From: Candidatus Harrisonbacteria bacterium
GTDB taxonomy: Bacteria > Patescibacteriota > Minisyncoccia > UBA6257 > 02-FULL-45-10c
DNA: 64,000 nucleotides
Assembly: GCA_016192685.1 (NCBI GenBank)
Contig: JACPTS010000003.1
Span: 15,119-79,118 of the forward strand
Direction of reading: 5' to 3'
Part shown: positions 5,870 to 60,240 of the stretch, piece by piece
Numbering within the stretch: the first letter of the stretch is position 1
Layout of the letters: every line of letters begins with the position of its first letter
Made by a program: the position numbers and the translations under genes
Notes under the pieces: model-generated
The model's input: the letters and a program-made list of their open reading frames with translations, nothing else
The model's database searches: none
Told to the model about the DNA's origin: nothing

Positions 5870-6304
5870 ATGGTCATTAGTTGGGAAACAGTGCATTGGG
5901 AACTATCTATTTTATTAATATATCTCTTATTCCCGATTGGTGCAGCAGGCGCAGTCTACTCCACAGAAAAATCAGCAGAAAAAAGGAAGAAGGATCTGAA
6001 GTTTTTTAAAAATATAGTAGCCTTATGTCTTGGCTTTATGCTGTTTATATTGAGCATGTTAATCTATCCCGCGATTGGCCCATGGGAAGTTAAAGATCGT
6101 GGAGTATTTGATAATGTTGAATATACGGATACAAGAGTGAAAAAAGTGCCTGTTGGTTGGCGAACACTTCATAAAACAATACTTCATTTTTCTGACGGGC
6201 GTACCGCAGTTCTTCCAGGCGAATATCCAATAGAATTTTCTAAAGGCACACCGATTAAAGTGATGACGAAAAATGATTTTTATAAAATTGTAAAAGATCA
6301 GTAA
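5870..6304 (+). CDS. hypothetical membrane protein (144 aa)
   Basis: Two N-terminal TM helices then a soluble domain, followed by a terminator. Confidence 0.45.
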   Translation: MVISWETVHWELSILLIYLLFPIGAAGAVYSTEKSAEKRKKDLKFFKNIVALCLGFMLFILSMLIYPAIGPWEVKDRGVFDNVEYTDTRVKKVPVGWRTLHKTILHFSDGRTAVLPGEYPIEFSKGTPIKVMTKNDFYKIVKDQ

Positions 6305-6317
6305 TCATTTATTTTCT

Positions 6318-6340
6318 CCGCTTGCCAGCGGGGATTTTTT
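6318..6340 (+). terminator. intrinsic terminator (CCGCT-tgcc-AGCGG + T6)
   Basis: GC stem-loop plus a T-run directly after the stop codon. Confidence 0.55.
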
Positions 6341-6346
6341 ATTTTC

Positions 6347-6382
6347 CTTATACCCCTTATTCGTACGAATAAGGGGTATAAG
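6347..6382. repeat. 36-bp perfect palindrome cttaTACCCCTTATTCGTACGAATAAGGGGTAtaag (copy 1 of 2; 32-bp core identical to 9237-9268)
   Basis: Perfect dyad symmetry centred on GTAC. It sits between a terminator and the dCMP deaminase start. The identical 32-bp core recurs upstream of htpX. Confidence 0.8.
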
Positions 6383-6450
6383 GAATAACTTGTATTCTTA
6401 AATTACAAAGTTTATGCTTTAGAAAGTTCAATAAAAATTAAAAACAGGAT

Positions 6451-7032
6451 ATGCTGGAAAATCCAATTAGAAGACTTTCAAAAATTGAATGTGGCATGTT
6501 TTTGGCTTATGGCCTTGCGTGTCGAGGCACATGTCCGCGAGCCAGAGTTGGATGTCTGCTTATGGATAAGAACGGTTATCATATTGCAACTGGTTATAAC
6601 GGTTCTGCTCCGGGCGCGCCGCACTGCGATGATGTGCAATGCGAGTTGAAAGATGGGCATTGTGTCCGCGTGAAAGCTCATGCGGAAAAAAATGCGCTTA
6701 AGCGGGCAAAGAAATTTGGAGCATACCGCCGGCTTAAGGATGGTTATGCGTTTACGACTATCAGGCCATGCAATAGCAGTCATTGCTTTGATGATTTAGC
6801 AATATCAGGCATCAAGAATATCATTTATTTTGAGGAATACAATGCTAATCTTGTATCCGCGCATCAAGAAAAAGTATGCCAAAAAAAAGGGATTATTTTA
6901 GAAAAATTTAATCTTGATATTGTTGAACTTATACAGAAAACGCTTGATTTTCACCAAGGTCCCGGCGGACTTTTAACTGGAAAAAATAAACTCCGCATCG
7001 TGGAAGATATTCCGGAAATGATGGACCATTAA
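6451..7032 (+). CDS. comEB: dCMP deaminase (cytidine/deoxycytidylate deaminase zinc-binding family)
   Basis: HAEKNAL and PCNSSHC zinc-binding motifs (H-x-E ... PC-x2-4-C). About 190 aa. Confidence 0.8.
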   Translation: MLENPIRRLSKIECGMFLAYGLACRGTCPRARVGCLLMDKNGYHIATGYNGSAPGAPHCDDVQCELKDGHCVRVKAHAEKNALKRAKKFGAYRRLKDGYAFTTIRPCNSSHCFDDLAISGIKNIIYFEEYNANLVSAHQEKVCQKKGIILEKFNLDIVELIQKTLDFHQGPGGLLTGKNKLRIVEDIPEMMDH

Positions 7033-7034
7033 TA

Positions 7035-7058
7035 CCCCAGTTTGACTGGGGATTTTTC
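7035..7058 (+). terminator. intrinsic terminator (CCCCAG-tttga-CTGGGG + T5)
   Basis: Perfect 6-bp GC stem plus a T-run. Confidence 0.6.
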
Positions 7059-7120
7059 TTGCCAGAATTATAAATTCCGGATAAACTGAAATTAGTAATT
7101 TAATATTTTATCATTAGCCA

Positions 7121-7702
7121 ATGCGGCTCCTGATAGTAACGCATTTCAGCGATGAATTTTCCGAAGACACCGCGAAATTTTATGAATATTTTTTAAAAAT
7201 TGTTAAGCTTCCGGAAAACCAAATTAGTTTTTACGCGCTGGAAACTTTTATTCGCGGTCAGAAGATAGAAGATGTTTTCGGGGAATTAGTGGCTAAAGAT
7301 TCTCCGCTGGTTATTTATTATGGCGGACACGGCGCCCGGGACGGCTGGAAATTATCCGGAAAATATACTGCGCTTTATAAAAATATCGTGCCGGTTTTGA
7401 AAGGACAAAAAAAGCCCCTGATTTTTTTAAATGATTGCTGTTTCGGAATGGCATTGCAGGATTATTTGCCGCAATTGAATTGCCGGCATCTGCTTTTGGG
7501 ACTTTGTCCGAAAACTCTGGAGGGTTACGACTCTTTGGTTCCGGCAACTCTCAAATGCTGGAAAGAATCAAAACCGGCTGACCCGAAACAATGGGTATAC
7601 CGCCGGAATAAATTGACTTCCTTTGCTTTGCAAAAATGCGCCGATCGGCTTCGGCGCGGAGAAAATTTAGATTATCTGTGTTATCCAAGACAAACCCGCT
7701 AA
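7121..7702 (+). CDS. clan CD (caspase/legumain-like) cysteine peptidase-domain protein, paralog B
   Basis: YYGGHGARDGW (His) and FLNDCCFG (Cys) with the same spacing as paralog A. Shared C-terminal RRGENLDYLCYP motif. Has its own promoter-like TTGCCA-17-TAAACT and its own terminator. Confidence 0.5.
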   Translation: MRLLIVTHFSDEFSEDTAKFYEYFLKIVKLPENQISFYALETFIRGQKIEDVFGELVAKDSPLVIYYGGHGARDGWKLSGKYTALYKNIVPVLKGQKKPLIFLNDCCFGMALQDYLPQLNCRHLLLGLCPKTLEGYDSLVPATLKCWKESKPADPKQWVYRRNKLTSFALQKCADRLRRGENLDYLCYPRQTR

Positions 7703-7728
7703 AGGCGGGTTTTTCATTGATTTTTATT
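7703..7728 (+). terminator. intrinsic terminator (CCCGCtaaaGGCGGG + T5)
   Basis: Stem-loop overlapping the stop codon, followed by a T-run. Confidence 0.5.
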
Positions 7729-7773
7729 TTTAAAACGTTTATTCTATAAGCAGTTTCTTAAAAGGAGGAAAAT

Positions 7774-8697
7774 ATGGATAATGAAAAATTGCCGGAACAG
7801 ATTCAAAATAAAGAAAAAAAGACGCTCCGCCCAGTAAATCCGGGAGCAGAAAAATGGCTGAATCGTCCGGTTAAGTGCTTAGATCATGGGTTTGTTTATT
7901 TAGTGGATTATTTAGGAGATGATTCGGCTATTGCTCAAGCTGCCCGGGTTTCTTACGGCCAGGGAACTAAGAAAGTTAGCGAGGACAGGGGATTAATCAG
8001 ATATTTGATGAGGCATCGGCACACCACTCCTTTTGAAATGTGTGAGCTGAAATTTCACTGCAAAATGCCGATTTTTGTGGCACGGCAATGGATTCGGCAC
8101 CGGACTGCCAATGTGAATGAATATTCCGGCCGCTATTCGGAAATGTCGGACGAGTTTTATCTTCCAAACTCCGCTGTATTAAGAAAGCAATCACAAGGCA
8201 ATAAGCAGGGTCGGAGCGAAGAAAAATTAACTTCCGAACAGCAAGCGAAAGTGCTCCAGCTATTTAAAGAGGATTATGAGCGCCAATATAAAAATTATCA
8301 GGAGTCTCTTAATTTGGGTTTAACAAGGGAATTGGCTCGCATTGGGCTTTCAGTCGCGAATTATACCCAATGGTATTGGAAAATTGATTTACATAACCTT
8401 TTCCATTTCTTGAATCTTCGGCTGGATAACCATGCGCAGTATGAAATCCGCGTTTACGGCGAGGCAATGGCAAGGATTGTAAAAGACGCCTTCCCGCTGG
8501 CCTATGAAGCTTTTGAAGATTACCGGTTAAATGCAGGGAATTTTTCCGGTCCGGAATTAAAGCTGTTGAGATTGTTGGCTAAACGTTGGCCAATCGATAA
8601 AAGCAGCGCCAGAGAAATAGCCAGCATTAATTTTCGGAATAAAAGAGAAACCGAAGAATTCTTGAAAAAAATTGATATGCTTGGATTATTTGTTTAA
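7774..8697 (+). CDS. thyX: flavin-dependent thymidylate synthase ThyX
   Basis: ThyX signature RHRTANVNEYSGRYS (RHRxxxxxS). 307 aa. RBS AAGGAGG upstream. Confidence 0.9.
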   Translation: MDNEKLPEQIQNKEKKTLRPVNPGAEKWLNRPVKCLDHGFVYLVDYLGDDSAIAQAARVSYGQGTKKVSEDRGLIRYLMRHRHTTPFEMCELKFHCKMPIFVARQWIRHRTANVNEYSGRYSEMSDEFYLPNSAVLRKQSQGNKQGRSEEKLTSEQQAKVLQLFKEDYERQYKNYQESLNLGLTRELARIGLSVANYTQWYWKIDLHNLFHFLNLRLDNHAQYEIRVYGEAMARIVKDAFPLAYEAFEDYRLNAGNFSGPELKLLRLLAKRWPIDKSSAREIASINFRNKRETEEFLKKIDMLGLFV

Positions 8698-8708
8698 GAA
8701 AAATCATA

Positions 8709-8731
8709 CCCGCGCTTGCGCGGGATTTTTT
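8709..8731 (+). terminator. intrinsic terminator (CCCGCGC-ttg-GCGCGGG + T6)
   Basis: Perfect 7-bp GC stem plus a T-run. Confidence 0.6.
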
Positions 8732-8767
8732 ATGGAGTATCATATAATCAGCGCTTTTAAAGAATAA

Positions 8768-9199
8768 TTGGCAATGAAATTAAGAATTGTTGTTTTGGCG
8801 TTAAGCTTATTTGTTCCTTTATCGCATTCTTTCGCTGATGAGCCGATTTCCGTATCCAGTATCCCATTTCAATCAGTTGATTATTGGGACGGATTAAATA
8901 GCCAAGTAGTTTTTGATTCGGTAAAATTACACGAAAAATCTTGGAAGCTTGTTGTGCCGATGGATAAAGTAGAGGTAGTTTTGCTGGAAGAAAAAAATAT
9001 TTATACGACGTTAAATTTAGTAAATGCAAGGGAAGATTACGGCAGTCCCGATTGGCTGAAAGCGGAAAAAGCAATTGTGGTAGTGCGCCAAAAAAGCGAT
9101 TTTATTTTATGGCAAAATTTCCTGGCGAGAATTAAAAAGAGACAAGAGTTGGAAAGAAAGAAATGGCTAGAACCAATCAGGGTTTTGCCTCCAGTGTAG
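8768..9199 (+). CDS. hypothetical secreted protein (143 aa)
   Basis: N-terminal signal peptide MAMKLRIVVLALSLFVPLSHSFA, with a terminator after the stop. Confidence 0.5.
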   Translation: MAMKLRIVVLALSLFVPLSHSFADEPISVSSIPFQSVDYWDGLNSQVVFDSVKLHEKSWKLVVPMDKVEVVLLEEKNIYTTLNLVNAREDYGSPDWLKAEKAIVVVRQKSDFILWQNFLARIKKRQELERKKWLEPIRVLPPV

Positions 9200-9200
9200 T

Positions 9201-9228
9201 CCCGCATTATTGCGGGATTTTTGTTTTT
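9201..9228 (+). terminator. intrinsic terminator (CCCGCA-ttat-TGCGGG + T-run)
   Basis: Perfect 6-bp stem plus a T-run. Confidence 0.6.
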
Positions 9229-9236
9229 TATTATAC

Positions 9237-9268
9237 TATACCCCTTATTCGTACGAATAAGGGGTATA
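9237..9268. repeat. 32-bp perfect palindrome TATACCCCTTATTCGTACGAATAAGGGGTATA (copy 2 of 2)
   Basis: Identical to the core at 6349-6380. Again lies just after a terminator and about 52 bp before a start codon (htpX). Both downstream leaders share CAGGATATG. Confidence 0.8.
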
Positions 9269-9320
9269 AGAAGAATTACCTTTTTATTTTTTAAAAAATC
9301 TATTATAATTTAAGCAGGAT

Positions 9321-10229
9321 ATGAATCAATTTCTTTATAAAAATAAAACTTTGAATCTTTTTAAGACCTGGCTGTTATTTGCCGGATTTTTGGGATTTGT
9401 AATAGCGTTTGGTTTTGCTTTTGCCCAGATTTACCAAAATTCCTCTATTCTTTATTTTGCGGTTATTTTGAGCGTTGGAACGGCGCTTTTCAGCTACTGG
9501 TTTTCCGATAAAATGGTACTCGCCATGGTTAAAGCCAAGCCAGTTTCCAAGGATTCCGCGCCGGAACTTTATGATTTGGTTTCGGATTTGGCGAAAGAAG
9601 CGAATTTACCCTTGCCAAAAATTTATATTGTTGAGGAAAATGCTCCAAATGCTTTTGCCACCGGCCGGAATCCGAAACATGCGGTAGTGGCGGTAACCAC
9701 CGGAATATTGCGGAAATTAAATAAAGATGAGCTTAGAGGGGTGCTGGCGCATGAACTTTCTCATGTTGCCAATCGCGATATGCTGGTAGGAACCGTAGCG
9801 GTGATTTTAGTCGGATTTATTTCTATTGCTTCTGATTTTTTTATGCGGTCAATGCTTTGGGGCGGAATGCGAAGAGATAGCCGAAATCAAGGAGGGACGA
9901 ATATTATTTTTCTGATAATTGGAGTGATTTTGGCAATGCTGGCGCCGTTGGCGGCGACTTTAATGCGTCTGGCAATTTCCAGAAAGCGGGAACTTTTAGC
10001 GGATTCTTCCGGAGCTCTTTTGACTCGGAAACCGGAAAATCTGGCGAGCGCTTTAATAAAAATTTCTTCTGATTCAACGCCAATGCTCCGTGCCAATAAT
10101 GCTAATTCCCATCTTTGGTTTGACGACCCGTTTGACAATAAGCCGCGTACTCCGTTTTTGCATAAATTATTCATGAGCCATCCGCCAACAGAGGAAAGAG
10201 TAAAGAACCTGCGCGGGTTAAAAATTTGA
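9321..10229 (+). CDS. htpX: zinc metalloprotease HtpX (M48)
   Basis: HELSHVANRD (HExxH), four TM segments, and C-terminal motifs of HtpX-type M48 proteases. Confidence 0.85.
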   Translation: MNQFLYKNKTLNLFKTWLLFAGFLGFVIAFGFAFAQIYQNSSILYFAVILSVGTALFSYWFSDKMVLAMVKAKPVSKDSAPELYDLVSDLAKEANLPLPKIYIVEENAPNAFATGRNPKHAVVAVTTGILRKLNKDELRGVLAHELSHVANRDMLVGTVAVILVGFISIASDFFMRSMLWGGMRRDSRNQGGTNIIFLIIGVILAMLAPLAATLMRLAISRKRELLADSSGALLTRKPENLASALIKISSDSTPMLRANNANSHLWFDDPFDNKPRTPFLHKLFMSHPPTEERVKNLRGLKI

Positions 10230-23093: not shown

Positions 23094-23123
23094 GATTTTG
23101 ATATAAGCCCTATTGGCCCAATT

Positions 23124-23141
23124 AGTCCTCTAGGTCCTATA
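23124..23141. repeat. TAGGTCCTA-type 9-bp motif cluster upstream of rpsJ (AGTCCTCTAGGTCCTATA)
   Basis: Member of the recurrent GTCCTA/TAGGAC motif family, about 5 bp before the rpsJ start. Confidence 0.45.
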
Positions 23142-23559: not shown

Positions 23560-23982
23560 ATGGAAAAGGTTTTAGCAACAAAATTAAAAATGACTCAAAT
23601 TTGGAAAGGCGATGCCGTTGCGTCAGTCTCACCATTGAAATTGGCTGAAAGCGCCAAAATAGAAGAATTTAAAGAAGGGGACTTAGTGAAGGTGAGCGGC
23701 GTAACCAAAGGCCATGGTTTTCAGGGCGTTGTAAAAAGATATAGTTTTGCCGGCGGACCAAAAACTCACGGCCAGAAAAATCGCTACCGGGCTCCGGGTT
23801 CTATCGGCAATACTTCTCCGCAAAGAGTTGTTCCCGGCCGAAAAATGGCCGGCCGGATGGGAGGAAAGAAAAAAACCATTCGGAATTTAACAGTCATAGC
23901 GATTAATAAGGATCAAGGAACAATTTTAGTTAAAGGATCAGTTCCGGGAAATGCCGGCGGGAAATTAACTATTATTAAATAG
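23560..23982 (+). CDS. rplC: 50S ribosomal protein L3 (short form, 140 aa)
   Basis: Conserved L3 segments (GVTKGHGFQGVVKR, GQKNRYRAPGSIG). Shorter than the canonical protein. Confidence 0.85.
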   Translation: MEKVLATKLKMTQIWKGDAVASVSPLKLAESAKIEEFKEGDLVKVSGVTKGHGFQGVVKRYSFAGGPKTHGQKNRYRAPGSIGNTSPQRVVPGRKMAGRMGGKKKTIRNLTVIAINKDQGTILVKGSVPGNAGGKLTIIK

Positions 23983-23998
23983 GTCCTATAAGACTTAT
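23979..23998. repeat. ATAGGTCCTATAAGACTTAT motif immediately upstream of rplD
   Basis: Member of the recurrent GTCCTA/TAGGAC (TAAGTCCTA-type) motif family, ending 7 bp before the ATG. Confidence 0.5.
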
Positions 23999-24005
23999 AA
24001 AATTT

Positions 24006-24632
24006 ATGGAAAATATTAAAGTTTACAATCAGGATGGCAATGTAACCGGCGAAATGGAAGCGCCGCGATTTTTATCTTCCAAATGGAATGGCGCCTTAAT
24101 CCATCAGGTATTTAAAGCAATCGTCGCGAATAAACGGCATCCGATTGCCCATACTAAGGATCGCAGCGAAGTCAGCGGCGGCGGCATTAAGCCGTGGCGC
24201 CAAAAAGGGACTGGCCGGGCAAGGCAGGGTTCTATCCGTTCGCCGCTTTGGCGGCACGGAGGAATAACTTTTGGCCCGCGGAATACCACGGATTTTTCTC
24301 AAAAAATCAACCGGAAGATGCTGAAAAAGGCGCTTTGGGAAGTTTTAGCTAAAAAATATTCTTTAAATCAGCTGAAAGTAATTAAAGATTTAGAAGTTAA
24401 TCCAAAAACTAAAGAATTAAACCGGATAATAACTAATTTAGTCGGCCAAAAAACTGCCTTATTGGCCGTAAGCAGCGCCAATAAAAATGTTTTCCGGGCG
24501 GCTGGCAACCTTGCCAAAATCAAAGCTCTGCCGATCAAAAATCTAAGCGTTTACGATGTTTTAAATTACCAATATGTTTTGCTGGATCAGGCGGCGCTTA
24601 CGGAATTAACAAATAATTATGCCTCTAAATAA
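24006..24632 (+). CDS. rplD: 50S ribosomal protein L4
   Basis: 208 aa, L4 family, in operon order. Confidence 0.9.
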   Translation: MENIKVYNQDGNVTGEMEAPRFLSSKWNGALIHQVFKAIVANKRHPIAHTKDRSEVSGGGIKPWRQKGTGRARQGSIRSPLWRHGGITFGPRNTTDFSQKINRKMLKKALWEVLAKKYSLNQLKVIKDLEVNPKTKELNRIITNLVGQKTALLAVSSANKNVFRAAGNLAKIKALPIKNLSVYDVLNYQYVLLDQAALTELTNNYASK

Positions 24633-29998: not shown

Positions 29999-30006
29999 CT
30001 TTTAAA

Positions 30007-30041
30007 TAAGTCCTGTAAGACCTATAGGACTAATAAGACTT
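30007..30041. repeat. tandem 9-bp motif array TAAGTCCTG-TAAGACCTA-TAGGACTAA-TAAGACTT abutting the rpsH ATG
   Basis: Member of the GTCCTA/TAGGAC motif family, ending at the start codon. Confidence 0.55.
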
Positions 30042-30422
30042 ATGTATTACGATCTATTAACCAAAATTAAAAACGCTCAAGCAGTTAAAAAAGAAAGTAT
30101 TAAAATTCCTTATACTAATATGGATTTTGCTATTGCCGAAATTCTTGCTAAACATAAATTCGTGGAAGAAGTTTTCAAAAAGGGGAGAATGCCCAAAAGA
30201 GTTTTGGATATAAAACTCAAATATCAAAACGGCCAAGGAAAAATCCTGGGAATTAAATTGCTTAGCAAACCGTCCAGAAAATTATTTGCCGGCTATAAAG
30301 ATATTAAACCGGTTCGGCAGGGGTATGGCTTGCTGGTTCTGTCTACTCCTAAAGGAATTATGGATGGCAAAAACGCCAAAAAAGAAAAAGTCGGCGGGCA
30401 ATTACTATTTGAAATCTGGTAA
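30042..30422 (+). CDS. rpsH: 30S ribosomal protein S8
   Basis: 126 aa, S8. Confidence 0.9.
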   Translation: MYYDLLTKIKNAQAVKKESIKIPYTNMDFAIAEILAKHKFVEEVFKKGRMPKRVLDIKLKYQNGQGKILGIKLLSKPSRKLFAGYKDIKPVRQGYGLLVLSTPKGIMDGKNAKKEKVGGQLLFEIW

Positions 30423-33565: not shown

Positions 33566-33816
33566 CGGTTCGGTATACTTCTATGAGAACCGCGGTTCTC
33601 GCGCTCCAGCGGCGCGAGCCCGCTACGCCTCGCCGCGATTTTTGTTTTGCTTCGCCAAGTCTGACTTGGCTTCGCAAAACAAACCAAGCAAATCGCGGCT
33701 CCGTAGTTTCTCTACGAAGCATACCGAACCATTTTGTTTTGATAAAAATAGCTTCGCTTGGTTGGGAGAATATTTTAAAATTTGTAGTTACCGCACGACA
33801 AATAGGCATAGCTCAC
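33566..33816. repeat. R1-family GC-rich nested-palindrome element, copy 1 (between secY and adk)
   Basis: Outer inverted repeats GGTTCGGTATaCTTCtaTGAG / CTCtaCGAAGcATACCGAACC, inner pair CTACGCCTCGCCGCGATTT / AAATCGCGGCTCCGTAG, and a central hairpin TTTGTTTTGCTTCGCCAAGTC-tga-CTTGGCTTCGCAAAACAAA. The core and the tail CCGCACGACAAATAGGCATAGCTCAC recur at 35412-35558. Confidence 0.7.
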
Positions 33817-33874: not shown

Positions 33875-34558
33875 ATGAGAAAGGTAATAATAATCTACGG
33901 GCCGCCGGGAGCCGGCAAGGGGACGCAAGCGAATTTGTTGGCTGGCAAGCTGGGGTTAATCCATTTTGACACCGGAAAATACCTGGAACAGCTGCTGCAC
34001 GATTCCGAACTTCAAAAAAACCCGGAGATTAAAAAAGCAAGAAAAATTTTTGATTCCGGCGCTTTGGTAACGCCAAGTTTTGTTTTAAAAGTTACTTCTA
34101 AAAAAACCAGAGAAATTGCCAAAGCCGGCTGGGGCATAGTTTTTAGCGGTTCGCCTCGGACCCTTTTTGAAGCTTTCGGCGATTCAAAAAATGAGGGTTT
34201 AATTCCAGCTTTTGAAAAATTGTACGGCAAAAAAAATATAGTGCCGATTTTGCTGAAAATAGACCCTAAAATTTCAATTTTGCGGAACGCTCACCGCCTG
34301 GTTTGCTCAGTTTGCGGAACAGCCATTTTATACAGCGATACGGAACATCAGCATAAAACCTGCCCTCTTTGCGGCGGAAAATTATACAAGCGAGTGGTAG
34401 ATAATCCTAAGGTTTTTGGAACAAGAATTAAGGAATATCAGGAACGGACCGCGCCGATTTTAGCCGGACTTAAAAAACGCGGCTATAAAATTACGGAAGT
34501 AGACGGCCGGCCGCTTCCCTACAAAGTTTTTGACTCAATTCTGAAGAAATTAAAATAA
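33875..34558 (+). CDS. adk: adenylate kinase (zinc-binding lid)
   Basis: GPPGAGKGTQ P-loop and a lid CxxC ... CxxC (CSVCG ... CPLCG). Confidence 0.9.
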   Translation: MRKVIIIYGPPGAGKGTQANLLAGKLGLIHFDTGKYLEQLLHDSELQKNPEIKKARKIFDSGALVTPSFVLKVTSKKTREIAKAGWGIVFSGSPRTLFEAFGDSKNEGLIPAFEKLYGKKNIVPILLKIDPKISILRNAHRLVCSVCGTAILYSDTEHQHKTCPLCGGKLYKRVVDNPKVFGTRIKEYQERTAPILAGLKKRGYKITEVDGRPLPYKVFDSILKKLK

Positions 34559-34659
34559 TACGAATTTACAAATTTATGCGAATGCTGCGAAAAATACGAA
34601 TTCGTTGTATTTGTAGATTAGCATTTATTCGTAGATTTGTATTATATTAGCGTAAGCGC
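34556..34659. repeat. R2-family about 104-bp palindromic element, copy A (exactly fills the adk stop to map start gap)
   Basis: About 90% identical to 36547-36651. Contains subterminal inverted repeats AATCTACAAAT / ATTTGTAGATT and a central palindrome TACGAATTCGT. It begins at the upstream TAA and ends at the downstream ATG. Confidence 0.75.
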
Positions 34660-35412: not shown

Positions 35413-35558
35413 CTCACTATGCTTATTTGTCTACCGGCACCGGCGTTCGCCGACTCCTGCGGTCGGCGCCGCCTACGCCTCGCCGCGATTTTTCGCTTCG
35501 CAAAACCAAGCAAATCGCGGCTCCGTAGTTGCCGTACGACAAACAAGTATAGTTCGCT
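35412..35558. repeat. R1-family GC-rich element, copy 2 (after map; lacks the central hairpin)
   Basis: Shares CTACGCCTCGCCGCGATTTTT, GCTTCGCAAAACCAAGCAAATCGCGGCTCCGTAGTT and the tail CCGTACGACAAACAAGTATAGTTCGC with copy 1. Its own outer inverted repeats are GCTCACTATGCTTATTTGTC / GACAAACAAGTATAGTTCGC. Confidence 0.7.
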
Positions 35559-35817: not shown

Positions 35818-36549
35818 ATGGCCAGACCATTTCTATCAGTAATTATTCCAGCCTATAACGAATCTAAGCGGTTGCCGCTGACGCTTATTGATATTGACAA
35901 GCATTTGGAACAGCAGGAATATTCTTACGAAATTTTAGTTGTGAATGACGGCTCTGCAGACCAAACGGCAGAAATTGTAAATCGTTTTATGCCGCTGATT
36001 GAAAATCTAAAAATTATTGATAATAAAGAAAATAAAGGCAAAGGCGCGGCGGTTCGGCAGGGAATGCTCCTTGCCAAAGGCACTTGGCGGCTTTTTATGG
36101 ACGCGGATAATTCCACTTCCATCGTAGAATTTAATAAAATGATTCCTTATTTTAAAGAAGGGTATGAAGTAGTAATCGGCTCTCGTGATGTAAGGGGCGC
36201 CCGGATGCTTCCGCCGCAGGCGTTTTATAAACGCTGGCTGGGTGATATTGGCAATTTATTCATTCAAGCCCTGTTATTGCCCGGAATCTGGGATACCCAG
36301 TGTGGCTTTAAATGTTTTTCCGATGAGGCGGCGGAACGGATATTTCATCTGACAAAAATTGACCGCTGGGGCTTTGACGCCGAAGCATTGGCATTAGCTA
36401 AAGCATTAAACTATCAAATAAAAGAAATGCCGGTATTTTGGGTAAACGATCCCAGAACTCATGTATCCTGGAAAACTTATTTGCAAGTTCTCTGGGAAAC
36501 TGTTAAAGTGCGATGGTGGCTTTGGCAAAATGCCTACGGTATTAAATAA
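35818..36549 (+). CDS. GT2-family glycosyltransferase (polyprenol-phosphate glycosyltransferase-like)
   Basis: LSVIIPAYNES ... VVNDGSAD ... DAD motifs of GT-A fold GT2 enzymes. 243 aa. Confidence 0.7.
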   Translation: MARPFLSVIIPAYNESKRLPLTLIDIDKHLEQQEYSYEILVVNDGSADQTAEIVNRFMPLIENLKIIDNKENKGKGAAVRQGMLLAKGTWRLFMDADNSTSIVEFNKMIPYFKEGYEVVIGSRDVRGARMLPPQAFYKRWLGDIGNLFIQALLLPGIWDTQCGFKCFSDEAAERIFHLTKIDRWGFDAEALALAKALNYQIKEMPVFWVNDPRTHVSWKTYLQVLWETVKVRWWLWQNAYGIK

Positions 36550-36651
36550 TACGAATCTACAAATTTATGCGAATGCTACGGAAAATACGAATTCGTTGTA
36601 TTTGTAGATTAGCATTTATTCGTTGATTAGTATTACACCGAGCGTAAGCGT
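36547..36651. repeat. R2-family about 104-bp palindromic element, copy B (fills the GT2 stop to greA start gap)
   Basis: See copy A. Again spans exactly from the TAA to the next ATG. Confidence 0.75.
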
Positions 36652-44788: not shown

Positions 44789-45151
44789 ATGCTTTTTAAA
44801 TTTCCCAAAGATGATAAAAATTTCTCCTGGACCCAGCATGTTAAAAATAAAATGCTGTATTATCGTCTTTCCGAACAAAAAATTAAGACGGTTTTAAAAA
44901 ATCCGGCGCGCAAAGAAGAGGGGATTGCGCCAAAAACTACGGCGGTTATGAAAAGAAATGATACACCAAAAAGAAAAGAAGAGTTGTGGGTGATGTACCA
45001 AAAATTAACAAAGAACGACAAACAACCGACAACCAACAACAAAATTAGGGTAATTTCCGCCTGGCGGTATCCGGGAGTAAGCCCGAAAGGCAAACAAATT
45101 CCGATTCCGGAAGATATTTTAAATGAATTAGAAGACGTGATTAATGAATAG
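44789..45151 (+). CDS. hypothetical protein (120 aa)
   Basis: ORF overlapping the mpg start by 8 nt. No recognisable motif. Confidence 0.4.
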   Translation: MLFKFPKDDKNFSWTQHVKNKMLYYRLSEQKIKTVLKNPARKEEGIAPKTTAVMKRNDTPKRKEELWVMYQKLTKNDKQPTTNNKIRVISAWRYPGVSPKGKQIPIPEDILNELEDVINE

Positions 45152-45728
45152 AGTTTTGCCGAAGAAATTCTTCCATAACAAAAATACGACCTTAATTGCG
45201 AAAAATCTATTGGGGAAATTTTTAGTCCGGCGTTATCGCAAGAAAATCAAAGCTTACCTAATCACTGAAATAGAAGCGTATGATGGCCCCAAAGATAAAG
45301 CTTCCCATGCTCATCGCGGCAAAACTGAAAGAAATAAAATTATGTTCGGCCCGGCAGGTTGTTGGTACGTCTATTTCACTTACGGAATGCATTGGATGCT
45401 GAATATCGTAACCGGACCCAAAAATTATCCGGCAGCAGTTTTAATTCGTTCAGTAATTCCATCGGTAACGCCAATGGTAACGCCAAAGCAGTTTATCCAG
45501 TTATCAAGCTCGAGCTTGATAACTGGATATAATGGTCCGGGAAGATTAACTAAAGCTTTAAATATTGATAAAAAAATGAATGGAAAAATAGCTGATAAAA
45601 AAAGCGGTTTATGGATAGAAGATATGGGAGTAAAAATTAGGCCGTCACAAATAAAAAAAGGACTGCGTATCGGAGTAGCTTATGCCGGCCCGACTTGGAG
45701 CAAGAAAAAATGGCGTTTTTATATATAA
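45144..45728 (+). CDS. mpg: DNA-3-methyladenine glycosylase (Mpg/AAG family)
   Basis: ITEIEAYDGPKDKASHAHRGKTERNKIMFGPAGCWYVYFTYGMH matches the AAG family core. Confidence 0.8.
   Translation: MNRVLPKKFFHNKNTTLIAKNLLGKFLVRRYRKKIKAYLITEIEAYDGPKDKASHAHRGKTERNKIMFGPAGCWYVYFTYGMHWMLNIVTGPKNYPAAVLIRSVIPSVTPMVTPKQFIQLSSSSLITGYNGPGRLTKALNIDKKMNGKIADKKSGLWIEDMGVKIRPSQIKKGLRIGVAYAGPTWSKKKWRFYI
45495..45528. repeat. 34-bp perfect palindrome ATCCAGTTATCAAGCTCGAGCTTGATAACTGGAT inside the mpg coding sequence
   Basis: Perfect dyad centred on CTCGAG, read in frame as IQLSSSSLITGY. It is preceded by a direct repeat GTAACGCC-aatg-GTAACGCC at 45465-45484. Confidence 0.75.
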
Positions 45729-48323: not shown

Positions 48324-49814
48324 TTATAAATAAATTATTTTAGCGCCCCCAGGAACTTCCTCAAGTTTCTCAGAAGAAATATAATAGATATTTTTTTCCT
48401 TTCGTTTTTTATCGGTAAAAGTATCGGTGAGAAAAAGGATTGTTTGGAGCGAAATCGGATTGTCGCGTTCAATTTTATCTTTTACATCGCTAACCACTAT
48501 ATATTTCGGCGTTTCTTTCGGCAAAGAATTTAAATATTGGGCAATTATTGAATCATTATAGGCAAAGGCGGGTTTTACATTAGAATTCTGGCCCCAAGTG
48601 ATGAAATAAGTTACGTAAGATTCAAACAGCAACAAACTACAAAATACATAGACAACAACTGACAACAAGCAACTACTTAATTTTGGTTTTAGAAATTCGT
48701 AAATTTTTAGACCTCCAATTGCGGCTAAAATAAAAACTGGCGGCACCGCAAGCAGAGAACGAAGCGCATGCGGCAGGCCTTCGTTAGAAACTACCACCGG
48801 AATTAAAGCGATGAAAAGCCAGATGAATAAAATTACAAATGGTAATTTTGGGAAGTCCGACCTCCTAGAATTATTATTTTCAATATTTGGGAGGTCAGAC
48901 TTCCTTAATATTGATTTAGCGCCTGAAATAATTCCGACTAAAAAGAAAATTCCGACCGGCCAGAAAAGCAGGGGGCGGCCGGCAACATTATGACGCCAGT
49001 TAAAATCGCCGAATACATTGAACATCCCTGTGGTTTTTAAAATATTAAGACCAAGATCACGAACCGGAGTTTCGGAATTAAAAATAGAAATGCTGGAAGT
49101 ACGTCCAAGAAAATCTTGAGGGTGGTTATAAAAATAAATTCCAAACGGCGCAATAGTAACAATAGCAGCAATCGCAAAAAACAAAAAAACTATTCTAATA
49201 TTCTTAAGAACATTAGAATAGTTTTTAAAATAGAAATAAACAATAAAAATTATAAGCAGGGGGGTGACGCGATAGGCGATATAAGAATGAAATCCGAGAC
49301 CATAGGTTAATCCTGCCAGAATTGACAAAAAATAAGACCAATAGGACTTATAAGATTTATATGAGAGTAATAGAAAATATAACGCCCAAATCAGGAAAAA
49401 CGGCGCCATGATGGCCCGAAAACCGATGCGGGAAAAATTAATGTGCCAAAAACTCGTAGCAAGCAAAAATGACGCTAAAAGCGCCATTTTTTTATCCGCA
49501 AAGAGTTCTTTAGTAAAAAGATATAACCCCCAAACCGTTAAAATGCCGAAAATGGCGCTCGGGAGCCTTAAAACCCAAGGTTCGTTGCCAAAAGCCGCTA
49601 TAAACAAACTTTGAATATTGATAAATAAGCCTTCCCTACCATGGTTTTCCGGATAAAAAACTTTCCAATCCCGATTTTCCCATGCCTCAACCGCGTTATT
49701 GCCGTTCATCGCTTCATCCGGATAAAGCCCCGGCGGTAATTCAGTGAAATTGTGAAGCCGCAGAAAGGAAGCTATAATTAGGATAATAACTAATAACCAA
49801 AGTTTTTTAAACAT
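48324..49814 (-). CDS. GT-C fold glycosyltransferase, ArnT/PMT-like (second paralog)
   Basis: LYPDEAMNGNNA loop-1 DE motif. 496 aa, multi-TM. Confidence 0.6.
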   Translation of the reverse strand: MFKKLWLLVIILIIASFLRLHNFTELPPGLYPDEAMNGNNAVEAWENRDWKVFYPENHGREGLFINIQSLFIAAFGNEPWVLRLPSAIFGILTVWGLYLFTKELFADKKMALLASFLLATSFWHINFSRIGFRAIMAPFFLIWALYFLLLSYKSYKSYWSYFLSILAGLTYGLGFHSYIAYRVTPLLIIFIVYFYFKNYSNVLKNIRIVFLFFAIAAIVTIAPFGIYFYNHPQDFLGRTSSISIFNSETPVRDLGLNILKTTGMFNVFGDFNWRHNVAGRPLLFWPVGIFFLVGIISGAKSILRKSDLPNIENNNSRRSDFPKLPFVILFIWLFIALIPVVVSNEGLPHALRSLLAVPPVFILAAIGGLKIYEFLKPKLSSCLLSVVVYVFCSLLLFESYVTYFITWGQNSNVKPAFAYNDSIIAQYLNSLPKETPKYIVVSDVKDKIERDNPISLQTILFLTDTFTDKKRKEKNIYYISSEKLEEVPGGAKIIYL

Positions 49815-56342: not shown

Positions 56343-57765
56343 TAAATTAATCAAATTAATAAGTCCTATAAGTCCTATAGGACCTATTCGGGTCAGAATC
56401 GCGCCATCGCCGACCGGCTATTTGCATATTGGGACGGCCCGAACCGCTCTTTTTAACTGGCTTTTTGCCAAAAAACACGGCGGCAAATTTATTTTAAGAA
56501 TAGAAGACACTGACCTGGAAAGATCCGATAAAAAATACGAAAAAGACATTATAGATGGCTTGAGGTGGCTGGGATTGGATTGGGATGAAGGACCCCATCG
56601 GCAATCGGAACGATTAGCCATTTATGAAAAATATCTTCAAAACCTCCTAAGCGAAAACCAGGCTTACTATTGCGCCTGCACCAAGGAAACTTTGGAAAAA
56701 GAGCGGCAGCTTCAAATAAAGAAAGGGGAGGCGCCAAAATACAGCGGCAGATGCCGAAATTTTAAAATTGCTCCGGAACAGGGAGAAATTATCCGTTTTA
56801 AAATTCCGCCGGCGGAGAAAATCCAATTTCTGGATTTGATTCGCGGCCCGATTATTTTTGACAGCAGCTTAATCGGGGATTTGGCTATCGCCAAAAACTT
56901 ACAAACCCCTCTTTATAACTTCGCGGTTGTTATTGACGATTACGAAATGAAAATCAGCCACGTAATCCGCGGCGAAGACCACATTGCCAATACGCCCAAA
57001 CAGATTTTGCTCCAGCGAGCCCTAAACTTTCCGGAGCCAAAATACGCCCATCTGCCGCTGATTTTAGACCCGGACCGGAGCAAAATGTCCAAACGCTATT
57101 CGGCTACTTCCATCCAAGAATATAAAGAGCGAGGTTATTTGCCGGAAACTTTAGTAAATTTTATTGCTTTGCTTGGCTGGCATCCGGCCGATGACCAGGA
57201 AAAAATGGCGGCGTCGGAAATTATCCGAAAATTCAGCCTGGAAAGAATCCAAAAGGCCGGGGCGGTTTTTGACATCCAAAAACTCAACTGGCTGAACAGC
57301 CAATATTTAAAGGAAAAATCCGAATCCGAACTGTGGCAAAAAATAAAAGAGCTTTACGATAAAAAAATCAGTATTCAAAACGAGGCGGCTCTAAAATTAT
57401 TAAAAATAGGAAAATTGAGAATGTCAAAACTGGAAGATTTTCTTTCTTTGCAGGAATCTTTAACCTTACCGGATTATGACAGCAATTTATTATCTTGGAA
57501 AAATACTCATAAAGAAACAACTAAAGAAGCCTTGCGGCTGGCGCAAGAAGTAACCAGAACCATTCTCGTCCACGAATTTAATCAAAAAAATCTGGAAAAC
57601 CAACTTATGCCCCTAGCGGACAACCAAGGAAGGGGAGAGTTCCTGTGGCCTCTGCGAGTAGCCTTATCCGGAAAAGATAAATCACCCGGGCCATTTGAGC
57701 TGATGGAAGTATTGGGAAAAGAAGAATCGTTAAGAAGAATAAATATTGCTATTGAAAAATTATAA
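56335..57765 (+). CDS. gltX: glutamyl-tRNA synthetase
   Basis: RIAPSPTGYLHIG (HIGH) and KMSKR. The first about 17 codons are encoded by the tandem TAAGTCCTA repeat array, so the start is uncertain. Confidence 0.88.
   Translation: MFSKLIKLISPISPIGPIRVRIAPSPTGYLHIGTARTALFNWLFAKKHGGKFILRIEDTDLERSDKKYEKDIIDGLRWLGLDWDEGPHRQSERLAIYEKYLQNLLSENQAYYCACTKETLEKERQLQIKKGEAPKYSGRCRNFKIAPEQGEIIRFKIPPAEKIQFLDLIRGPIIFDSSLIGDLAIAKNLQTPLYNFAVVIDDYEMKISHVIRGEDHIANTPKQILLQRALNFPEPKYAHLPLILDPDRSKMSKRYSATSIQEYKERGYLPETLVNFIALLGWHPADDQEKMAASEIIRKFSLERIQKAGAVFDIQKLNWLNSQYLKEKSESELWQKIKELYDKKISIQNEAALKLLKIGKLRMSKLEDFLSLQESLTLPDYDSNLLSWKNTHKETTKEALRLAQEVTRTILVHEFNQKNLENQLMPLADNQGRGEFLWPLRVALSGKDKSPGPFELMEVLGKEESLRRINIAIEKL
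56360..56387. repeat. tandem 9-bp array TAAGTCCTA-TAAGTCCTA-TAGGACCTA containing the palindrome GTCCTATAGGAC (56372-56383)
   Basis: Perfect 12-bp palindrome within a 3-unit tandem repeat at the gltX 5' end. Confidence 0.7.
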
Positions 57766-57773
57766 ACTAAATT

Positions 57774-59051
57774 ATGAATAATAAGTCCTATAGGACCTAT
57801 AGAGCTTATAAGTCTTATGGGGCCTATCTAATAGCGTTTTTTCTTCTTCCGCTTTTTTCACTGGCGGCGGAAATTCCTCAAAATCTTAAAAACACTATTC
57901 AAGAAAAAACCCAGGCCCTGCAGGAAATAAACCAAAAAATCCTTCAAACCGAAAAAGAGCTGGAAGAAACCGAAGGCAAAAGCCTGACTTTGCAAAAAGA
58001 AATTAAGCAAAAAGAGCGGCAGCTAAGCCAATTAAACCTCAACATCAAAGCCGGTGAAATTACTATTGAGAGATTAAACCTGGAAATTGAATCTCTAAAA
58101 TACGATGTTACGGAAACCCGAACTAAAATCAGCGCCCAAAAAAACGGCATTGCTCAAATTTTAAAATCCATCCAACGGAGAGACAGCGAAAATACTCTGA
58201 CGGTTTTACTTAAAAATAGCAGTCTGGCGGAAAGCCTGGCCGAATTAGAAAATCTTTTAAATTTAAATGTCGGCCTTAGTGCCGGCGTCAATAAACTTAG
58301 TTTTCTTGATAAAAATTTATCCGACCAGCTTGGTTTAACTGCCAAAAAACAAACTGGGGTTATTTCAGAAAATAAAAATTTAAAAAACCGGCAATTAATC
58401 GCCGGTTCGGAAAAAAATGAACGCCAAAATCTGCTTACTCGGACTAAAAACCAAGAAAAATTGTATGCCGACCAACTAAAAGAGCTGAAAAAACTTCAGG
58501 CGGAAGTATCGGCGGAAGTGGAAAAAATAGAAGCCGAGCTGCGTTTAAAAATAGACCCGGCTCTTTTGCCAATTCCAAGGCCCGGCGTGCTTTCTTGGCC
58601 GATAACTATGAAAAATCAGGGCGGAACCGGCCGTTTAACCCAAAAATGGGGAATTCCTTCGCCGCTTTATGGAGGAAGAGCGCACAATGGCATAGACATC
58701 GGAGCTCCCATTGGAACGCCAATTTTTGCCGCGGGAAAAGGCAGGGTGGCGGAAGTCTGGAATCAAGACCGGTATTGCTATAAAGGCGCTTACGGCAAAT
58801 TTATCATTATTGAACATGAAAATAATCTCACTACTTTATATGCCCATTTATCTCTTCAGTCGGTAAAAAAAGGCGATTATGTGAACCAAGGAGACTTAAT
58901 CGGCTATGTCGGCCAAACCGGCTATGCTACCGGCCCGCATCTCCATTTCACCGTCTACGCAAGCCAAACTTTTATTCTCAAATCCAGCAAAGTCAATTGC
59001 GGCCCGATTATGCCATTTGGCGGCGATTTAGATCCGCTCCAGTACTTATAG
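57774..59051 (+). CDS. M23-family peptidase with N-terminal coiled coil (EnvC/LytM-like)
   Basis: HNGIDIGAPIGTPIFAAGKGRV and HLHF M23 motifs. Signal peptide after a repeat-encoded N-terminus. Confidence 0.8.
   Translation: MNNKSYRTYRAYKSYGAYLIAFFLLPLFSLAAEIPQNLKNTIQEKTQALQEINQKILQTEKELEETEGKSLTLQKEIKQKERQLSQLNLNIKAGEITIERLNLEIESLKYDVTETRTKISAQKNGIAQILKSIQRRDSENTLTVLLKNSSLAESLAELENLLNLNVGLSAGVNKLSFLDKNLSDQLGLTAKKQTGVISENKNLKNRQLIAGSEKNERQNLLTRTKNQEKLYADQLKELKKLQAEVSAEVEKIEAELRLKIDPALLPIPRPGVLSWPITMKNQGGTGRLTQKWGIPSPLYGGRAHNGIDIGAPIGTPIFAAGKGRVAEVWNQDRYCYKGAYGKFIIIEHENNLTTLYAHLSLQSVKKGDYVNQGDLIGYVGQTGYATGPHLHFTVYASQTFILKSSKVNCGPIMPFGGDLDPLQYL
57782..57828. repeat. TAAGTCCTA-type array containing GTCCTATAGGAC (57785-57796) at the 5' end of the M23 peptidase gene
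   Basis: ATAAGTCCTATAGGACCTATAGAGCTTATAAGTCTTATGGGGCCTAT, with the same units as at gltX, rpsH and rplD. Confidence 0.7.
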
Positions 59052-59958: not shown

Positions 59959-60240
59959 TTATAGCAAAATTACGCGGCTAAGAATATCACTTCTGGGGAT
60001 AAATCCGAAATGCCGGCTATCAGCGCTGTAAGCCTTATTATCTCCCTCTACAAAATAATTATCCCCTATTTTGGCGGTAATCCTCTTTACAATTTTCTTA
60101 CCGCCGGCTAATTTAATAATCGCCACATCTCCGATCCGAAAATTGAAAAATAATTGGCTGAATTTCTCGGCAATAACATATTGGCTGTCTTTTAAAGCCG
60201 GTAGCATACTATCTCCTGCTATCTTAAATCGCCTGATCAT
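59959..60240 (-). CDS. sodX: Ni-SOD maturation protease SodX (S26 signal-peptidase-like)
   Basis: GDSMLP (Ser nucleophile) and SADSRHFG boxes, 93 aa, immediately downstream of sodN. Confidence 0.7.
   Translation of the reverse strand: MIRRFKIAGDSMLPALKDSQYVIAEKFSQLFFNFRIGDVAIIKLAGGKKIVKRITAKIGDNYFVEGDNKAYSADSRHFGFIPRSDILSRVILL

Follow-up and report, generated by a model that had tools for sequence, protein, structure and literature searches.

Palindromes upstream of dCMP deaminase and htpX in a Candidatus Harrisonbacteria genome as candidate operators of an ArsR-like protein of Patescibacteria

Introduction

A 64,000-nucleotide stretch of contig JACPTS010000003.1 from Candidatus Harrisonbacteria (the window, by which we mean this whole stretch) contains two identical copies of a 32-bp perfect palindrome, one upstream of a dCMP deaminase gene and the other upstream of htpX, which encodes an M48 zinc protease. 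We lean, with modest assurance, toward the view that both copies are operators of a homodimeric, winged-helix protein of the ArsR family that is widespread in Patescibacteria and whose gene is bracketed by the same motif in other genomes. The ultra-small Patescibacteria, or the candidate phyla radiation, have very few transcription factors, and we know of no experimentally defined regulon in the group. The pairing of this motif with an ArsR-like regulator appears to be undescribed: searches of the literature by sequence and by keywords found no description of the motif. Its unusual features are the bracketing of the regulator gene, covariation between the arms, and a copy-like spread.

Results

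The window contains two copies of the 32-mer TATACCCCTTATTCGTACGAATAAGGGGTATA and no more, one at 6349-6380 and the other at 9237-9268. The count is unchanged when up to three mismatches are allowed, and no copy was found in 100 dinucleotide-preserving shuffles, which bears out a preliminary description of two identical 32-bp palindromes at these loci. The full extent of each copy is as follows.

6344..6385, no strand: palindrome copy 1, perfect over 42 bp, TTCCT-TATACCCCTTATTCG-TA-CGAATAAGGGGTATA-AGGAA
9237..9268, no strand: palindrome copy 2, exactly 32 bp, the same 32-mer, with its invariant center at 9247-9258

In copy 1 the conserved 32-mer occupies 6349-6380 and the invariant center, ATTCG-TA-CGAAT, occupies 6359-6370. 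This copy had been recognized as a perfect palindrome but was credited with 36 bp; it measures 42 bp, and 46 bp if one mismatch is tolerated. The flanks of copy 2 are not complementary. As single-stranded DNA, copy 1 is predicted to fold into a 19-bp stem (-18.4 kcal/mol, z = -7.5) and copy 2 into a 14-bp stem (-11.9 kcal/mol, z = -4.8). Both copies sit between a terminator and the next start codon, 70 nt (copy 1) and 52 nt (copy 2) from the ATG codons of dCMP deaminase and htpX as measured from the 32-mer, in agreement with the earlier estimate of about 50-70 bp. When the two loci were aligned in search of a shared leader, identity spanned 34 nt (TATACC...GGTATAAG), and the only likeness outside it lay in the terminator T-runs and the 9-mer CAGGATATG. 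As originally noted, both leaders end in CAGGATATG, which is found in the window only at these two starts (0.21 occurrences expected; 2 of 100 shuffles reach two); the coincidence is modestly unlikely, and we regard it as real but weak evidence.

Independent Logan assemblies of this organism, built from several sequencing runs, include the palindrome as well, which excludes an artifact of one assembly. Contigs break within it: the 32-mer contains an end of each of L001, L002, L148 and L149, which come from at least four runs. A repeated perfect palindrome confuses k-mer assemblers and thus acts as a systematic breakpoint, with the practical consequence that short-read assemblies break at such loci.

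We scanned one genome per species (185,579 species) for the exact pattern TATACCCCTTAT-N8-ATAAGGGGTATA and obtained 27 sites in 19 genomes, with one to four sites per genome. Every named genome among them belongs to the Patescibacteria (Harrison-, Kaiser-, Lipton-, Zambryski- and Nomurabacteria, Paceibacterota, and metagenome-assembled genomes labelled Saccharibacteria), and G+C contents range from 39 to 56%. A metagenome scan with a looser core gave 112 stretches, 80 of which were retrieved, and deduplication left 109 distinct canonical sites. No viral contig matched either arm variant, and a phage origin was rejected for that reason. The preliminary description had asked whether copies are numerous and randomly placed, or missing from related genomes. 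The answer is mixed: copies are few, the closest relatives have none, and many are found in more distant Patescibacteria.

The motif has a 15-2-15 layout and the consensus nnnn-TA(T/C)A-CCCCTTATTCG-NN-CGAATAAGGGG-T(A/G)TA-nnnn. Only the pentamers ATTCG and CGAAT never change across 140 distinct sites. The dinucleotide between them, at the center, is unconstrained but usually pyrimidine-purine (CA/TG 56, CG 37 and TA 19 of 144). A profile scan of the retrieved loci uncovered diverged relatives whose arms are different yet complementary, including the pairs CCTC/GAGG, CCCCTC..GAGGGG, CTAATTCG..CGAATTAG and GGCTAATTCG..CGAATTAGCC. The arm covariation score is 0.309, compared with 0.153 in shuffles (none of 500 reaches 0.309) and 0.12-0.15 with slid partners; judged by the test used for repetitive extragenic palindromic (REP) elements, the hairpin is kept by compensatory changes. 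Beyond the 32-mer, site-specific complementarity continues for three to four more positions (87, 75 and 72 Watson-Crick pairs of 107, with about 35 expected) and falls to chance by position 10. Individually symmetric but differing arms can coexist within one genome (L005, L007, L019, L069), so arm symmetry is not explained simply by a lineage-specific protein specificity. Sites in the same neighborhood share the central dinucleotide or its reverse complement in 44 of 67 pairs, compared with 16.9 expected (p = 3e-12), and in 22 of 33 when one pair is taken per locus. Since this dinucleotide is otherwise free, its sharing implies that copies derive from one another or are homogenized. Together, arm complementarity and shared centers suggest that new sites arise by copying of an existing site or by hairpin-templated homogenization, not by base-by-base evolution. 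Long palindromes are made or maintained through hairpin copying or template-switch correction of quasi-palindromes, and these processes best explain the symmetry of the arms. There may also be a requirement for cruciform formation.

A hairpin with covarying arms could instead act in a transcript, as a terminator, a 3′-end stabilizer, or an RNase III processing site between genes. A stable stem of 14-19 bp is predicted, many copies lie right after 3′ ends, overlap the stop codon of the arsR-like gene described below or fill the spacer between tandem genes, and a few core matches have the A-run...T-run flanks of ordinary terminators (L040, L043). The window copies, however, lie just downstream of their own terminators and are thus probably little transcribed, no T-run follows the canonical palindrome, and the element is perfectly symmetric, with no strand-specific excess of G-U among its mismatches. 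Indeed, the mismatches show no strand bias pointing to RNA: T-G about equals C-A, because the left arms are pyrimidine-rich. No family in Rfam 15 reaches its gathering threshold, the only hits being generic miRNA-precursor hairpins (for example, 32.6 versus 139 bits), and the invariant part of the motif is the apex, a dyad-symmetric pattern of conservation expected for a dimer on duplex DNA. A role at the RNA level therefore strikes us as very improbable. For the window copies a terminator function was specifically rejected; the terminator scan calls separate T-run hairpins 8-17 nt upstream and not the palindromes, whose flanks (TATAAGG/TATAAGA) contain no T-run. The core also resembles telO of phage N15. 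A protelomerase or hairpin-telomere site was rejected on the grounds that contigs run through sites, several sites lie 1-3 kb apart, the center is often non-palindromic, and no such enzyme is encoded nearby.

The protein most consistently associated with the motif is a small member of the ArsR family. Of the 109 distinct canonical sites, 24 (~22%) have an open reading frame (ORF) of this kind, 86-105 aa long, no more than 160 bp away, and no other family is as frequent in the 3.5 kb around sites (21 loci). The protein, with the consensus E(K/R)ILKALANxRRLAILxYL...SFKxTSRHL...EREQR, matches Pfam HTH_5 with 34.1 bits (cut-off 22), and its nearest solved structures in the PDB are HlyU, PagR, SmtB and NolR (E = 3e-6 to 7e-4). 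A profile search recovered at least 4002 sequence clusters, mostly annotated PF01022; the few that carry names are all from Patescibacteria. Locus L006 provides a Harrisonbacteria member (MEKILKAVANKRRL...SHE). The family has no conserved Cys and no His/Asp metal-site pattern at the alpha3N and alpha5 ligand positions, and its sole invariant His belongs to the SRHL motif of the recognition helix. Because metal-ligand residues are not conserved, the protein is probably a non-metal member of the ArsR family, as NolR and PagR are, and the signal that it senses is probably not a metal. A zinc regulon was considered on account of zinc-protein neighbors of the sites (HtpX, dCMP deaminase, PyrC, CysRS, carbonic-anhydrase-like and Zn-ribbon proteins). 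With a regulator without conserved ligands and a target list that is too mixed to support it, this reading stays speculative.

The arsR-like gene is usually bracketed by the motif. One site is centered 17-100 nt before its ATG and is followed by, and sometimes abuts, an extended -10 promoter (TGnTAnAAT); the second overlaps the stop codon, or sits 20-70 nt past it, ahead of the next gene. Sites that overlap the stop codon (...CTA ATT CGN NCG AAT AA) encode the last residues of the protein, xNSxE before the stop. As a control for the bias of collecting loci through the palindrome, we relied on nothing but protein similarity to select four members of the family that lie on long contigs. All four genes are bracketed by ...TCTCTAATTCG-NN-CGAAT... 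motifs, and one of these loci has five sites in 20 kb, some of them in spacers between Zn-ribbon paralogues.

Those paralogues belong to a Cys-rich Zn-ribbon family of ~570-610 aa that recurs at 13 loci, often as tandem genes between which the palindrome is the whole spacer. In equivalent spacers from different genomes, the center of the motif is kept and the arms are different. The family has Zn-ribbons at its N and C termini (CxxC...PPPTFCPxCRxQRRL) and only a sub-threshold Pfam hit, and it often follows the arsR-like gene (loci L022, L035, L059, L068, L113, L157 and others); no homologue was found in the window. Other recurrent neighbors are dnaX, which adjoins the motif in 11 loci, a PD-(D/E)XK nuclease, phosphoglycerate kinase (PGK), an ABC ATPase and pyrB/pyrC. 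One arsR gene is divergent to a TK-ThyA-DHFR operon near a dCMP deaminase.

The family also shows a weak sequence match (E = 0.005) to AspA, an ArsR-like protein that binds centromeres, and this raises the question of whether the sites organize the chromosome, marking positions rather than promoters for a winged-helix protein encoded next to them. Like parS/ParB and AspA systems, the motif consists of conserved, low-copy palindromes that are found across the radiation, adjoin the gene of the presumed binder, and are placed regardless of promoters; the adjacency of dnaX is also compatible with such a role. Against it, motif neighborhoods yielded no ParA or ParB partner genes and no enrichment of a ParA-type or SMC-loading partner, and upstream sites overlap the promoter of the regulator itself, as in ordinary autoregulation. 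The AspA match is far weaker than those to HlyU, PagR and SmtB, and sites are gained and lost between close relatives, those of the window being absent from its own, unlike core chromosome architecture. We consider a centromere-like function improbable.

Four relatives retain the gene order GroEL-(dCMP deaminase)-ThyX-HtpX, with HtpX proteins that are 87, 82, 76 and 74% identical to that of the window. In the 7-13 kb of syntenic sequence available from each, there is no palindrome and not even the TTCGNNCGAA core; their htpX spacers consist only of a terminator and TATAAT, the latter kept just before the ATG. In relatives, hrcA-grpE follows just downstream of htpX. The absence of sites at these positions indicates that both window sites are recent gains, and any regulation of htpX and dCMP deaminase through them would thus be recent and lineage-specific. 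There is consequently no support for htpX and dCMP deaminase as conserved stress targets under common regulation: none of the four syntenic relatives (0/4) has the palindrome at either position, and no arsR gene was found in the ~84 kb of this genome that were searched. In one relative (L143, HtpX 82% identical), ttttccttatatcccc follows the groEL terminator at 1571-1758 and resembles the left half of window copy 1, ttttccttatacccc, with the right half missing; it could be a decayed or a precursor half-site.

The same comparison bears on whether the palindromes serve site-specific recombination, bounding a 2.9-kb cassette that can be inverted or excised and is made up of dCMP deaminase, an ORF without assignment, ThyX and a small secreted protein. 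Identical palindromes do flank these functionally coherent thymidylate genes, their outward flanks are partly complementary (I2: 40 nt, 95%), pyrimidine genes lie between such sites elsewhere (L004: pyrB, pyrC), and assemblies break at both sites. But the block, with its order and orientation unchanged, also occurs in relatives without the palindromes and is thus ancestral, there is no recombinase nearby, assembly breaks are expected for any repeated 32-mer, and a palindromic TA center provides no directionality. The idea is hardly credible to us, and a mobile-cassette or integron attC-type boundary between the copies was rejected on the first two of these grounds.

The genes and signals around the window copies are listed below.

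5870-6304: 144-aa membrane-protein ORF upstream of copy 1, served by the terminator at 6315..6340
6315..6340, +: intrinsic terminator, stem 6315-6334 with 8 pairs, then TTTTTTATTT; ends 8 nt before the copy 1 32-mer
6451..7032, +: dCMP deaminase gene (dCMP_cyt_deam_1, PF00383, 58.6 bits), candidate target of copy 1
8768-9199, +: 143-aa secreted-protein ORF upstream of copy 2, served by the terminator at 9198..9229
9198..9229, +: intrinsic terminator, stem 9198-9219 with 9 pairs, then TTTGTTTTTT; T-run ends 7 nt before copy 2
9304..9309, +: TATAAT hexamer, putative -10 element read from the sequence, 11 nt before the htpX ATG
9321..10229, +: htpX (M48 zinc protease; Peptidase_M48, PF01435, 126.8 bits), candidate target of copy 2

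The G+C content of the window is 41%. Its genes are almost all on one strand, and most have their own terminator. The dCMP deaminase gene opens a same-strand run that continues with a 193-aa ORF, ThyX (PF02511, 194.5 bits) and the 143-aa ORF; groEL is located 0.6 kb upstream. HtpX is identical to NCBI MBI3046584.1 from a Candidatus Harrisonbacteria metagenome-assembled genome. The TATAAT before htpX has no -35 element and hence was not called by a consensus promoter scan; taking it as the -10, the center of copy 2 would fall near -63. A weaker promoter candidate, TTGTAT-17-TATGCT, precedes dCMP deaminase at 6390-6418. Pfam gives no match for the 193-aa ORF (7121-7702) that separates dCMP deaminase from ThyX; inspection by eye shows a His/Cys pattern like that of caspases (YGGHG...NDCCFG), and the position of the ORF is conserved in the closest relative (L141, 187 aa).

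Discussion

Of the readings offered in the preliminary description, operators for a dimeric regulator are the best supported, and the candidate regulator can now be specified as the small ArsR-family protein whose gene the motif brackets. We propose that a homodimer of this protein would read the inverted pentamers ATTCG and CGAAT around a flexible pyrimidine-purine center on duplex DNA. At the regulator's own gene, a site in or just upstream of the extended -10 promoter, as seen in most genomes with the motif, implies autoregulation, the downstream site may control or insulate the gene that follows, and further single copies occupy a few other intergenic regions. In this Harrisonbacteria genome, two sites were newly placed immediately upstream of the promoter regions of the dCMP deaminase-ThyX run and of htpX, where a dimer whose center lies ~60 nt ahead of the putative transcription starts could influence how transcription of both units is initiated. 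The analysis shows the sequence, where it sits, how widely it occurs, the covarying arms and the linkage to the ArsR-like gene; protein binding, the direction of any control, the effector, and whether this genome encodes the regulator are matters of inference.

ArsR/SmtB repressors recognize 12-2-12 inverted-repeat operators, and comparison with the operators of SmtB, CzrA, CadC, NolR, HlyU and PagR is instructive. The likenesses are an HTH_5 protein, an inverted repeat with a free 2-bp center, and, in genomes other than that of the window, a copy at the regulator's own promoter, which fits autoregulation. In contrast, half-sites of the present motif are 15 nt long and often perfectly symmetric, and its presumed regulator lacks the conserved Cys/His/Asp ligand set. 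A second site regularly coincides with the 3′ end of the regulator gene and in some cases codes for the last five residues, the arms covary rather than being conserved, and copies also occur between convergent genes. A second point of comparison is CIRCE, the element bound by HrcA, with the consensus TTAGCACTC-N9-GAGTGCTAA, a 9-N9-9 repeat upstream of groE/dnaK-type genes. Both systems have long palindromic operators that are widely conserved and lie near chaperone or protease genes; their sequences and geometries are unrelated (9-N9-9 versus 15-2-15), however, the gene linked to the present motif is arsR-like and not hrcA, and relatives that do have hrcA lack the palindrome.

Several observations weigh against an operator function. 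Searches with tblastn and a hidden Markov model found no arsR homologue in ~84 kb, comprising the window and 10 kb beyond each end reached through Logan contigs, and protein searches with a cluster look-up linked no ArsR protein to this metagenome-assembled genome; a weak hit at 59959-60240 corresponds instead to a signal-peptidase-like ORF. The four syntenic relatives lack the sites. By spacer type, canonical sites are 62 tandem, 13 convergent and 5 divergent, a distribution like that of the background (chi-square p = 0.06-0.27), and one would not expect promoters at the 13 convergent sites, which lie between 3′ ends. Covariation of arms whose sequence is not conserved, seen even inside a single genome, is not something that a plain operator requires, and neighboring sites share a central dinucleotide that is otherwise free. 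Finally, sites were collected with exact-match patterns, so that arm conservation is partly imposed by the collection itself.

Many of these features would follow if the palindrome were instead a self-propagating hairpin similar to REP/REPIN elements, a 32-42-bp unit copied to intergenic sites by way of a single-stranded hairpin or template switching. The bracketed ArsR-like gene would then be the home locus, and most solitary copies, the two in the window included, would be passengers without regulatory purpose. The window copies match each other even in the free central TA, four syntenic relatives lack them, the class of the central dinucleotide is shared within loci (44/67 pairs), the arms covary (0.309 versus 0.153 shuffled), and complementarity that is specific to each site extends 5-8 nt past the conserved part. 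Placement among intergenic types equals background, with its 13 convergent sites. RAYT genes are flanked by REPs, and in REP/REPIN-RAYT systems (REPtrons), as here, hairpin-capable intergenic palindromes show compensatory arm changes and signs of derivation from each other, and flank an associated gene on both sides.

The differences from REPtrons are nevertheless substantial. REPs number tens to hundreds per genome, whereas canonical copies of the present motif number only one to four, with two in 84 kb here. The flanked gene encodes an 87-aa ArsR-type winged-helix DNA-binding domain without a catalytic domain, not a Y1 transposase, and the 3.5 kb around sites show no enrichment of any transposase, integrase, recombinase or HUH/Y1 nuclease family. 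Viral contigs do not carry the motif. We saw no target-site duplication and recovered no pair of empty and filled sites that had clean boundaries. Divergent genomes retain sites at equivalent positions although the arms have changed, an indication that these sites function where they are. On these grounds we judge a purely self-propagating element unlikely, if well worth keeping in view. The suggestion of a minimal palindromic mobile unit, made in the preliminary description, gains from the recent acquisition of the window sites, their shared centers and their background-like placement, but loses from low copy number and the lack of an associated transposase.

Operator function and hairpin copying could also be combined. 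In such a copy-and-paste operator, a hairpin-forming site would spread or be homogenized through a single-strand or template-switch route, carrying a protein-binding site to new genes. This proposal is a tentative one, with the odds against it; if it is true, the minimal ArsR-like protein would constitute, together with its palindrome, a quasi-autonomous module capable of rewiring transcription or marking chromosome positions in the reduced genomes of Patescibacteria, with the bracketed regulator gene as the source locus.

With the operator reading as the one that we favor, a small ArsR-family protein found in at least 4000 sequence clusters and a well-defined DNA motif constitute a testable pair. 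Proposed targets include the regulator's own gene, the large Cys-rich Zn-ribbon proteins, and genes of nucleotide and DNA metabolism (pyrB/pyrC, thymidylate genes and dnaX neighbors). The gain of binding sites could also be studied here, given the covarying arms, the shared centers and the two sites that a single lineage acquired inside 3 kb.

Other repeats in the window

The pentamer that forms the invariant core of the palindrome recurs in a 92-nt direct repeat. Its two copies (34553-34644 and 36544-36635, 95% identical) follow adk and a GT2 gene and lie ahead of map and greA; they are rich in CGAAT/ATTCG (ACGAATTCGT, TTATTCGTAG) and could be another binding array for the same ArsR-like protein. 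Adjoining them are paired GC-rich repeats of 64 nt and 37 nt (D5, D13; 33580-33717 and 35430-35539), 73-92% identical, which may be small RNA genes or structured elements.

Two further palindromes lie inside coding sequences. At 45492-45531, a loopless 40-bp palindrome with one mismatch, TTTATCCAGTTATCAAGCTCGAGCTTGATAACTGGATATA, falls within a methylpurine-DNA-glycosylase ORF (45144-45728; Pur_DNA_glyco, 182 bits) and may be an in-frame palindromic insertion in the coding region. A 42-bp palindrome, AAAAACTATTCTAATATTCTTAAGAACATTAGAATAGTTTTT, is found at 49185-49226 inside a minus-strand PMT_2 glycosyltransferase ORF (48324-49814), which also holds a ATAAGACC/ATAGGACT repeat copy at 49322-49361. 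The latter position is among those of a second palindromic repeat family, built of 9-bp units (ATAAGTCCT / ATAGGACCT) with the core AAGTCCTATAGGACTT, whose copies lie at 1680-1719, 23103-23141, 23978-24017, 30005-30044, 49322-49361, 56358-56397 and 57771-57819. Members of this family are mostly located at gene junctions, among them those of gltX and an M23 peptidase gene, and one fills the S14-S8 spacer into the ATG.

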